From sequence record PP197160.1: a DNA stretch of 43,930 nt; one strand, written 5' to 3'. The stretch is from Escherichia phage phiHAO78-1. Under the pieces are notes generated by a model that had not been told where the DNA came from, searched no databases, and saw nothing but the letters and a program-made list of their open reading frames with translations. Both the position numbers and the translations under genes were made by a program. Below are positions 40,276 to 41,952 of this stretch, one piece after another; positions within the stretch are counted from its first letter, which is position 1, and every line of letters begins with the position of its first letter.

Positions 40276-40479
40276 TTAATCCTTGAATACTACATTGCGA
40301 GCCACGAGTGTGCTATTGTCGCTGGATACTATACCGCCAACTGTGTGGCTTGACTGCAACCACCGCTGCAGAGGTTTGCTATAGTGTTCAGCGTGCTCGT
40401 TCAGCGTACCATATAGCGGCACCCGGTACAGTAACCCGTTCGGGCGCTTGTACAAGTCATACTCAACTAGTTCGTTCAC
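40276..40479 (-). CDS. Hypothetical early protein (67 aa)
   Basis: Small ORF in a run of overlapping early ORFs on the coding strand. Confidence 0.4.
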   Translation of the reverse strand: MNELVEYDLYKRPNGLLYRVPLYGTLNEHAEHYSKPLQRWLQSSHTVGGIVSSDNSTLVARNVVFKD

Positions 40480-40691
40480 ACTACACCTCGCACATTAAAA
40501 CGGTGACAGTAACCGCGCAGGGTCATACCCAGCCGCTTTGCTTGTTTCTCATAGTGCTGGCGCAGCGTTGCTTTTGCGCTGTATTCACGCGCCAGCCCGT
40601 CGATAGTTTGTTGCTGCCTACGCATCAGCAGCGTTTCAGGATTCTTTCCGTACTTACTAACCATAAAGTTACCTCCAATCGGTAATAACAC
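40476..40691 (-). CDS. Hypothetical early protein (71 aa)
   Basis: Small basic ORF whose stop overlaps the next gene's start. Confidence 0.4.
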   Translation of the reverse strand: MLLPIGGNFMVSKYGKNPETLLMRRQQQTIDGLAREYSAKATLRQHYEKQAKRLGMTLRGYCHRFNVRGVV

Positions 40692-40890
40692 CTAGATTCA
40701 CGGCGTCCAGCAGAGTGCGGGCAGCCATTTCGGTATGAGTATCAACAAGATCTAAAGGGAATTCCTGATTGACGTCTTGGTCAGAGAATATCATCACAGT
40801 GTAATTGTACTCCGGGTACACTTGGTTGCACCACACGGGCCAGAGTATGTGCCCCGGATAGATTAATTTTGCTTTCATTTGAAACCTCAC
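40669..40890 (-). CDS. Hypothetical early protein (73 aa, acidic)
   Basis: Small ORF immediately downstream of the conserved hairpin at 40908..40929. Confidence 0.4.
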   Translation of the reverse strand: MRFQMKAKLIYPGHILWPVWCNQVYPEYNYTVMIFSDQDVNQEFPLDLVDTHTEMAARTLLDAVNLGVITDWR

Positions 40891-40907
40891 TTATTAGTGG
40901 CATTCAC

Positions 40908-40929
40908 ATAGCGCCCCGTAGGACGCTAT
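40908..40929 (-). other. Conserved hairpin element, copy 1 (ATAGCG-CCCCGTAGGA-CGCTAT)
   Basis: Intergenic inverted repeat; same architecture as 41699..41727, with compensatory stem changes. Confidence 0.5.
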
Positions 40930-41067
40930 AGGCTTGCCACTATACGTATTCCCCTAATCCCTCATACCGCCACTTGTTGTGACGGCCACGGGTAGGGATG
41001 TTGAAGGCGTCCGCATCGTTGGCCGCAGGGCACAGCGCCCACCACTTGATAACCGGAACCTTATAAA

Positions 41068-41655
41068 TCATGCTGGCACCTTCAGCGTTGCATCCAGTAC
41101 AGCGCGTACATCCACACCCTGCGATACCAGCATAGACACAAGGTCAGCATCGCTTACGCCAGTCTCTTTTGCTTTTTTGATGGCGCTTTTAACGCGCCCC
41201 AGAGCTTGTAGGCGCACTGCATCGGCATCAAGGGCATCATTCTTCACTTGCTCTGCTTCAGCAGTGTACAGAGCCATACAAGCGCTATAGAAGCTGGCAA
41301 TAATCTCTTCGCGGCCTTGCTTGTCAGCTTGTTTATAGTCCAAACGCATAGTGTCCAGTTCAATGCCCAGCTTCTCAGCCGACGCATAGCACTTTTTAGC
41401 GTGGAATTCGTACTTGCCGGATTCCTTATTGAACTTGATGGGCAGCAGTGTGCGCAGCACCATATCGAAATCAGCGGCATCACTGCGCTGCATATCCGTC
41501 GCCCAAGAAACGTTGCTACTAATCAGGCCGTGGAACAGAGCGCTGATAGTAATATTGCGTTTTGCTTCCACTACGTCGCCCAGCGCCTTGCGAATGCTGC
41601 CAGCAGCGGTTAATTTGAATACTTTACCAGTTGATTTAGTTACTGAACGAGTCAT
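41068..41655 (-). CDS. Hypothetical early protein (195 aa)
   Basis: ORF flanked on both sides by the conserved hairpin elements. Confidence 0.5.
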   Translation of the reverse strand: MTRSVTKSTGKVFKLTAAGSIRKALGDVVEAKRNITISALFHGLISSNVSWATDMQRSDAADFDMVLRTLLPIKFNKESGKYEFHAKKCYASAEKLGIELDTMRLDYKQADKQGREEIIASFYSACMALYTAEAEQVKNDALDADAVRLQALGRVKSAIKKAKETGVSDADLVSMLVSQGVDVRAVLDATLKVPA

Positions 41656-41698
41656 GATACACCTCTTTGATTGTTGGTTGTTTAGGTAATTACTTCAC

Positions 41699-41727
41699 AT
41701 AGCACCCCCCCCCCCATAGGATGCTAT
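41699..41727 (-). other. Conserved hairpin element, copy 2 (ATAGCA-C11-ATAGGA-TGCTAT) with an 11-nt poly-C loop
   Basis: Intergenic inverted repeat; the stem differs from copy 1 by a compensatory pair (G/C changed to A/T). Confidence 0.5.
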
Positions 41728-41736
41728 AGGCTGTAA

Positions 41737-41952
41737 TTAGCGTCCAAACTGCCCTGCAGTATACCAACCTTGTGGCGCCCTGCTACTTCCCCTTGTTTTG
41801 GTCTTACCGCGTACATTTGTACTGAATGTAGCGGATTGTTTCATGCGCATATACCCGGCGCGATTCAACGCGTCCCGACGCTTTCTCAATTCCGGACCAG
41901 ATAACTTCTCAAGTCCAGCGAATTGTTGTTTCAATTTATCTCGGTACTTCAT
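41737..41952 (-). CDS. Hypothetical first early protein (71 aa, basic)
   Basis: AAGGGG 7 nt upstream of the ATG at 41950..41952; first ORF after the long non-coding leader. Confidence 0.45.
   Translation of the reverse strand: MKYRDKLKQQFAGLEKLSGPELRKRRDALNRAGYMRMKQSATFSTNVRGKTKTRGSSRAPQGWYTAGQFGR

Follow-up and report, generated by a model that had tools for sequence, protein, structure and literature searches.

Six conserved small genes, two hairpins and a candidate host-takeover protein in the left-end early region of Escherichia phage phiHAO78-1

Layout and gene content of the early cluster

A cluster of small genes on the minus strand of Escherichia phage phiHAO78-1 (PP197160.1; 41952..40276) was analyzed, following an original prediction that it encodes host-takeover or anti-defense factors. 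The window (the whole stretch of DNA analyzed, 43,930 nt) is a complete Drulisvirus (KP34-like) genome in reverse orientation. DNA of the cluster region was 86-88% identical to Escherichia and Shigella phages IK_ECO1, ZH5, EC22.5-2, Minorna and SFN6B and also matched >230 Klebsiella phages; relatives with a taxonomy line were assigned to Autographiviridae, Slopekvirinae, Drulisvirus. The genes of the window all lie on the minus strand, and coding sequence after the left-end promoters begins with the cluster, which forms the promoter-proximal part of the early operon. The phage RNA polymerase (RNAP) gene, identified with Pfam, is located downstream of primase, helicase and DNA polymerase and directly upstream of the portal gene, and the order of DNA polymerase, portal and terminase genes is phiKMV-like. 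As RNAP is 3' of the DNA-metabolism genes, the layout is that of phiKMV/KP34 and not that of T7, in which the RNAP gene is situated within the early region. The early cluster is ~16 kb from the RNAP gene, and the analogy with the corresponding position in T7-like phages, on which the original prediction drew, is loose.

Features were tabulated with their coordinates (Table 1). All five open reading frames (ORFs) of 67 to 195 aa on which the prediction was built are present on the minus strand where they had been placed; a sixth gene, gpC, had been missed, and two starts (gpD and gpE) had probably been misplaced. Starts at ATG 40878 (gpD) and ATG 40664 (gpE) were preferred on account of an upstream Shine-Dalgarno sequence and agreement with homologue starts. 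All six proteins matched full-length PHROG profiles (6352, 5277, 10968, 7657, 5136 and 7916 for gpA to gpF; E 1e-24 to 1e-104), and gpE also matched Pfam DUF7267 (PF23929; 5e-26, 91 bits vs. a cut-off of 27). None of these families has an assigned function; the proteins are not ORFans, although no family had been recognized in the original prediction. The ratio of nonsynonymous to synonymous substitution (dN/dS) was calculated pairwise against five relatives, with dS 0.3-1.5 in most comparisons. Purifying selection was found on all six genes (dN/dS 0.03-0.5; 0.04-0.06 in the neighboring M28 peptidase, for comparison). The six ORFs are taken as real genes of conserved phage-only families without known function. 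That they are frames open by chance within a long, non-coding leader of the early region, a reading prompted by their shortness and their annotation as hypothetical only, is excluded for practical purposes by the PHROG matches, by dN/dS well below 1, by a Shine-Dalgarno sequence or translational coupling for each gene, and by two confident AlphaFold2 (AF2) models.

Table 1. Positions of the early genes, RNA elements, promoters and other features in the window
Feature	Coordinates	Strand	Length	Remarks
gpA	41952..41737	-	71 aa	First gene
gpB	41655..41068	-	195 aa	
gpC	41071..40940	-	43 aa	Sixth gene; ATGA overlap with gpB stop
gpD	40890..40669 (ORF); preferred start ATG 40878	-	73 aa; 69 aa from preferred start	
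gpE	40691..40476 (ORF); preferred start ATG 40664	-	71 aa; 62 aa from preferred start	
gpF	40479..40276	-	67 aa	GTG start overlapping gpE stop
gpG	39929..40273	-	114 aa	Next operon gene, just beyond the cluster; phrog_6167 (6.5e-54); dN/dS 0.08-0.15
Hairpin 1	41686..41740	-		Starts at gpA stop UAA; minimum free energy -19.8 kcal/mol; covariance model 62.2 bits, sense strand
Hairpin 2	40895..40942	-		Starts at gpC stop UAG; minimum free energy -30.2 kcal/mol, z -5.7
Sigma70-type early promoter, TTGACA-17-TAGATT	42687..42715	-		Consensus scan 10/12; identical to host promoter in Table 3 of PMC4411677
Second putative host promoter, TTGACA-17-TAGCTT	42341..42369	-		Weak -10 box; read from sequence, below scan threshold
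Leader, second promoter-like box to gpA	41953-42345	-	~390 nt	
gpH	38182-40176	-	664 aa	ATG 40176
HNH/helix-turn-helix ORF	36703-37170	-	155 aa	Just 3' of peptidase gene
Left-end non-coding region	~42960-43580	-		Tandem and dispersed repeats
Phage RNAP gene	24610..22142	-		Pfam

Gene order between the host promoters and the large gpH and peptidase genes is kept in Minorna, PSK2, KpV475, fHe-Kpn01 and KP34. A backbone (gpA-gpB-...-gpE-gpF-gpG-gpH-peptidase) is common to Drulisvirus, Bucovirus (Buco) and Phimunavirus (PhiM1), and gpB, gpE, gpG and gpH were also found in a Vibrio Maculvirus phage. Relatives have extra genes at two sites (slots), the first separating gpC from hairpin 2 and the second gpD from gpE (fHe-Kpn01 g05, g07, noted as DinI-like, and g08; KP34 genes 4 and 6; KpV475 gp05 and gp06; Minorna gp53). 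Both slots are empty in phiHAO78-1, which therefore carries a minimal early set.

A deletion lineage was identified through a gpB homologue (P0058) of 114 aa, in which gpB residues 1-87 are joined in frame to the C-terminal half of gpE. The gpB::gpE fusion was present on two contigs, one of which is a 43,653-bp Drulisvirus contig (L009, Logan SRR27680592; 3732-4892). L009 keeps hairpin 1, gpF (58% identity), gpG and gpH; missing from it are gpB beyond residue 87, all of gpC, hairpin 2 and gpD, and the first half of gpE. If the fusion phage is viable, its gene content suggests that several strongly conserved genes would be dispensable in some conditions, in the manner of the class I accessory genes of T7. 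The gpA position of L009 holds a different 65-aa allele, of which only the C-terminal half is shared.

Beyond the cluster, gpH and gpG share 248 nt, read in different frames. Its long frame and ATG are open in 6/6 Drulisvirus genomes compared; an internal Met99 (39882) is preceded by a GGAGA Shine-Dalgarno sequence, and the more distant Buco, PhiM1 and Vibrio phages have a short, non-overlapping form, which is also chosen by some gene callers (fHe-Kpn01, L009). The fHe-Kpn01 homologue of gpH is virion-associated. The 155-aa ORF downstream of the peptidase gene contains HNH/His-Me finger endonuclease and helix-turn-helix (HTH) domains, which point to a probable homing endonuclease; the same ORF is found in L009. 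The window ends share an identical 76-nt stretch (19-94 and 43855-43930), suggesting that part of a direct terminal repeat was captured, or that a circular-assembly overlap was retained.

gpF, its neighbors and the searches for function

The protein gpF was 52% identical to Gp10 of Drulisvirus fHe-Kpn01 (blastp, E 4e-22; 67 aa vs. 69 aa), and the two genes hold the same position, immediately 5' of the 114-aa gpG homologue. Of the fHe-Kpn01 genes annotated as hypothetical, 22 were cloned by Spruit et al. (2020; PMC7291057), who scored the yield of E. coli transformants as relative colony-forming units (CFU), with a toxicity cut-off of 0.4. For Gp10 the relative CFU was 0.113, and its toxicity was confirmed from pBAD33. 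As Gp10 was toxic in this screen, one cluster member, gpF, is related to a protein with documented host inhibition. Scores for homologues of the remaining five proteins came from the same screen: Gp2 (gpA, 90% identity to g02; relative CFU 0.66), Gp3 (gpB, 93% to g03; 0.65), Gp4 (gpC, 74% to g04; 0.90) and Gp9 (gpE, 82% to g09; 0.60) were not called toxic, and Gp6 (gpD, 72% to g06) was barely above the cut-off at 0.42.

Of the set, gpF was the fastest-evolving (dN/dS ~0.47, dN up to 0.70). Its alleles are discrete, with 98.5% identity to one E. coli phage and 50-72% to others in which the flanking genes are 82-95% identical. Distribution counts were obtained with tblastn against 50,697 phage records; gpF was found in 91, with one Acinetobacter phage record outside Klebsiella, Escherichia and Shigella. 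This low count is attributed to divergence and not to absence. In all relatives examined, a hidden Markov model of the gpF family matched the ORF that separates gpE from gpG (KP34 1.6e-9, KpV475 4e-9, Buco 2.8e-4, PhiM1 4e-4), and Foldseek aligned gpF with a 59-aa PhiM1 protein at the equivalent position (template modeling score 0.68/0.76). The AF2 model of gpF had a mean predicted local distance difference test score (pLDDT) of 91.6 and the fold of a generic small beta-barrel. From the modeled fold, the rate of evolution and the positional homology to toxic Gp10, we infer that gpF is the best host-takeover candidate of the cluster.

Function searches were made with all six proteins. No anti-defense, defense or anti-restriction family was matched in Pfam, PHROG, NCBIfam or PADLOC; the single PADLOC match, to GajB (E 0.013), was at chance level. 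Sequence and profile searches of PDB returned nothing for gpA, gpB, gpD, gpE and gpF, and Pfam, NCBIfam and PDB profiles revealed neither an HTH nor any other DNA-binding family in gpA, gpB and gpE. Net charges of gpA to gpF were +14, +4, +2, -5, +9 and 0. A DNA mimic of the Ocr/ArdA type, for which structure prediction had been recommended, was rejected: there was no family match, the strongest net negative charge was only -5, and the first gene is strongly basic. A host RNAP inhibitor like T7 Gp2 was likewise rejected, given no family match and the distance of the cluster from the RNAP gene. Gp2-like RNAP inhibitors of the phiKMV/LUZ19 type lie immediately 5' of the RNAP gene and not in a left-end position (PMC5537680). 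When a set of Klebsiella phages with three Drulisvirus among them was run through AntiDefenseFinder, hits were reported in other genera only (PMC12629751).

These results bear on the possibility of a new anti-defense factor (anti-restriction, anti-BREX or anti-abortive-infection), which is considered unlikely; the most plausible candidates would be gpF and gpD, the latter being mildly acidic. The genes do lie 3' of host promoters at the end expected to enter first, no housekeeping function is assigned to any of them, and gpF is fast-evolving with discrete alleles; the loss or truncation of gpB, gpC, gpD and gpE in a natural lineage is also as for accessory genes. However, no family with such an annotation was matched, the AntiDefenseFinder hits fell outside Drulisvirus, and none of the proteins is Ocr-like. 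Furthermore, gpA, gpB and gpE are shared across genera with dN/dS of 0.03-0.1 in most comparisons, unlike patchy anti-defense cargo, and the slots filled in relatives are empty in phiHAO78-1. The gpC/hairpin 2 and gpD/gpE slots of the relatives are the better place in which to seek such cargo. Host takeover by cluster proteins is plausible. That half of the original proposal is supported by the homology of gpF to Gp10, while the anti-defense half met with no family match and with a conserved backbone.

The first protein, gpA, is very basic (isoelectric point (pI) 11.5), matched phrog_6352 at 1e-44 and is under strong constraint (dN/dS 0.03-0.05). It was found in 242 phage records, which extend beyond Klebsiella, Escherichia and Shigella to Pectobacterium, Dickeya and Erwinia. 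The basic gpE (pI 10.5) was found in 317 records, extending to Pectobacterium, Enterobacter and Salmonella, and has a conserved C-terminal motif, LGMTL..YC.RFN.RG. Its dN/dS was 0.11-0.53, with the values of 0.3-0.5 obtained against the two closest relatives, where dS is small. Given their high basicity, gpA and gpE are probably nucleic-acid binders.

The most widely conserved cluster protein is gpB, with 339 records that also include Pectobacterium, Vibrio, Aeromonas and Pantoea (dN/dS 0.05-0.11). Its AF2 model had a pLDDT of 85, and the fold search gave no structural relative. When its profile was compared with 1.84 billion representatives, only 36 clusters were matched, and these were proteins of similar length or fragments, except for ankyrin-repeat giants. 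Residues ~160-182 (window 41068-41150) contain the motif DLVSMLxSQGVDV, which resembles the helix-turn of a single ankyrin-repeat consensus; this local likeness explains why ankyrin giants and designed ankyrin proteins surface in profile searches. An ankyrin or HTH domain at the C-terminus was rejected, as the matches span only ~20 residues (161-182) and arise through repeat inflation. A LapG-like cysteine protease had weak matches only (E 0.1 in PDB, 0.023 in NCBIfam) and was rejected because distant homologues have Ala, Val or Thr in place of Cys89 and Cys125 and no protease appeared in the fold search.

The two remaining proteins are gpC and gpD. The tryptophan-rich gpC matched phrog_10968 at 1.5e-32, with dN/dS of 0.09-0.22 against 4/5 relatives and an identical sequence in the fifth, PSK2; it is annotated in KP34, KpV475 and fHe-Kpn01 and unannotated in some relatives, e.g., Minorna. 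The mildly acidic gpD (pI 4.5) matched phrog_7657 at 7e-42, with dN/dS of 0.10-0.54. Its 229 records are Klebsiella, Escherichia and Shigella phages, apart from one that bears just the name Drulisvirus sp., and by this distribution gpD is confined to Drulisvirus.

A role of gpA, gpB and gpE in the phage's own program, e.g., as transcription or translation regulators of the early-to-middle switch or as DNA-end or replication-start factors, would fit several of these observations: purifying selection is very strong, conservation runs from Klebsiella to Pectobacterium phages (to Vibrio phages for gpB and gpE), the high basicity of gpA and gpE suits nucleic-acid binding, and the fHe-Kpn01 homologues of all three are not toxic to E. 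coli. Against this, the fusion lineage, which is without intact gpB and gpE, assembles full-length in two contigs and so argues vs. essentiality, and the searches with Pfam, NCBIfam and PDB profiles gave no match to an HTH or similar DNA-binding family. This role is rated improbable as the main explanation.

Hairpins, promoters and the leader

Two hairpins, which had been described as bracketing the cluster, instead punctuate it, one after gpA and one after gpC. Exactly two copies are present in the window. Each is bipartite, with an internal loop between an outer stem of 8 bp and an inner stem of 10 bp. Covariation was assessed across 19 pairs in 13 copies from seven genomes, with 500 shuffles. 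In the alignment 93.5% of cells were paired (25-47% in slid registers), both-sided changes were seen at 10/19 pairs, and the covariation score was 0.46 vs. 0.16 in shuffles, none of which (0/500) reached the observed value. Two G-U pairs are conserved, one invariant and the other in 12/13 copies. As these would be A-C mismatches on the opposite strand, and as the covariance model scored hairpin 2 at 74.3 bits in sense vs. 17.6 bits in antisense, an RNA structure of the sense strand is indicated. Neither hairpin is followed by a U-tract or was reported by the terminator scan; intrinsic terminators were ruled out for both by the missing U-tract.

The same sequence was described by Eriksson et al. 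(2015; PMC4411677) as the motif AGCCTATAGCGTCCTACGGGGCGCTATGTGAA of Kp34-like viruses and was called a 'putative phage promoter' or nick site; the two window hairpins are that motif at the same two positions. Unlike a duplex-DNA promoter, the hairpins show covarying outer stems, conserved G-U pairs and strand asymmetry, none of which a promoter needs. Only two copies are present in the genome, and neither is 5' of late genes. These observations favor a sense-strand RNA element over a promoter. The hairpins are probably processing or stabilizing sites of the RNase III type, by analogy with those of T7 early mRNA: they are intercistronic, lie in an operon predicted to be host-transcribed, have a ~20-bp stem with an internal loop, and show compensatory change.

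Several side observations concern the hairpins. The loop of hairpin 1 carries a run of 11 G (41705-41715), in contrast to the GGGG, or a near variant of it, found in all relatives; the expansion could be real homopolymer growth or an artefact of sequencing or assembly. This run is one of several long poly-C runs of the plus strand (9-16 bases; poly-G when read on the coding strand), and the others are at 43634-43642, 43855-43868 and 17-32. Weak covariance-model matches (~11 bits, E 1.6-2.8) were obtained at the stops of the PhiM1 gpB homologue and Buco gp6 (L007 2434-2478 and L006 2434-2479), and these may be diverged counterparts of hairpin 2.

The cluster was correctly placed after a leader with a sigma70-type promoter: TTGACA-17-TAGATT is identical to a host promoter listed for KP34-like phages in Table 3 of Eriksson et al. 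(2015; PMC4411677), and the second putative promoter resembles the second host promoter of that study. In the consensus scan, promoter-like matches in the region were not more numerous than in shuffled sequence, so support for the promoters comes from conservation and the literature and not from the scan. The leader between the second promoter-like box and gpA is without a conserved ORF and folded somewhat better than shuffles (z -2.15); it may contain regulatory RNA structure. Rfam gave no match at E up to 1 within 39800..43930, which includes the leader and both hairpins. Further toward the left end, several short repeats, some tandem and some dispersed, occur in the non-coding region, e.g., CTCTGGGAAG in three to four copies near 43480-43515, CTCTGCGTG in two copies, and repeated GCATTGGTTAGCA units.

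Proposed operation of the cluster and comparison with known systems

Taken together, the picture regarded as probable, with some reserve, is that of a host-transcribed operon punctuated by two hairpins and encoding conserved small proteins, among which gpF would be a growth-inhibiting takeover factor and gpA and gpE would be nucleic-acid binders. By analogy with T7 and phiKMV, host sigma70 RNA polymerase would start near 42715 and 42369 and read through a leader of ~400-750 nt into one polycistronic mRNA. The hairpins would then split the mRNA into gpA, gpB-gpC and gpD-gpE-gpF-gpG..., serving as RNase III-type processing sites or as 3' stabilizers, comparable to the intercistronic sites of T7. 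Of the products, gpF would bind and inhibit an essential host component, and gpA and gpE would bind nucleic acid. As the backbone is common to several genera, the target is probably one common to enterobacterial hosts, or lies in the phage's own program, rather than a strain-specific defense.

Several points weigh against this picture. Toxicity is known for a 52%-identical homologue only, from one overexpression screen, and toxicity upon overexpression is no proof of a takeover role. In that screen (PMC7291057; overexpression in E. coli), none of the homologues of gpA to gpE was scored as toxic. PDB, profile and fold searches gave no sequence or structural relative with a biochemical clue, and literature searches found no study of early-gene function or of transcripts and their timing in Drulisvirus. 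The deletion lineage is known only from public-read assemblies (two contigs, one named sample), and Eriksson et al. read the hairpin motif as a phage promoter or nick site.

A bolder form of this picture is tentative at best. Here gpF and its positional homologues in Slopekvirinae and Corkvirinae would form a new class of beta-barrel effectors, gpB would have an unseen fold with takeover activity, and the promoter motif would be an RNA processing signal. If true, the gpF class would shut down an essential host function or disarm a defense, its allelic diversity would reflect an arms race, and podophages from those of Vibrio to those of Klebsiella would have the gpB fold in common.

Drulisvirus phages are widely used therapy candidates against Klebsiella and E. 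coli, and their early region is annotated as hypothetical throughout. Separating the backbone (gpA, gpB, gpE and gpF) from lineage-specific genes (gpC and gpD) and from the variable slots sharpens the choice of genes, and as a growth-inhibition candidate gpF would be of value for antibacterial discovery. Reading the hairpins as RNA would correct a promoter annotation that has stood in the literature since 2015. The novelty of the proteins is low, as they are new members of known uncharacterized families in a well-sampled genus, and the findings will not surprise a phage specialist. Mildly new are the assignment of gpF, confidently modeled and rapidly diverging, to the Gp10 family, the finding that gpB apparently has no structural relative, and the rereading of the promoter motif as RNA structure.

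The closest known systems were compared with the cluster. It resembles the class I region of T7 (0.3-0.7, with RNase III sites) in being a left-end operon read from host promoters, in its small and apparently non-essential proteins, and in its intercistronic hairpins. It differs from that region in that its proteins have no sequence or fold relation to Ocr, gp0.4 or gp0.7, its first gene encodes a basic protein and not an acidic DNA mimic, and the RNAP gene is ~16 kb downstream. With phiKMV-like phages it shares an RNAP gene that ends the DNA-metabolism block and many small early ORFs, whereas the Gp2-like inhibitors of phiKMV/LUZ19 adjoin the 5' side of the RNAP gene and no homology between them and the cluster was detected. 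Compared with fHe-Kpn01, gpF is 52% identical to Gp10 while neighboring genes are 82-93% identical. With respect to DUF7267 and the PHROG families there is no difference, the six proteins being full-length members.

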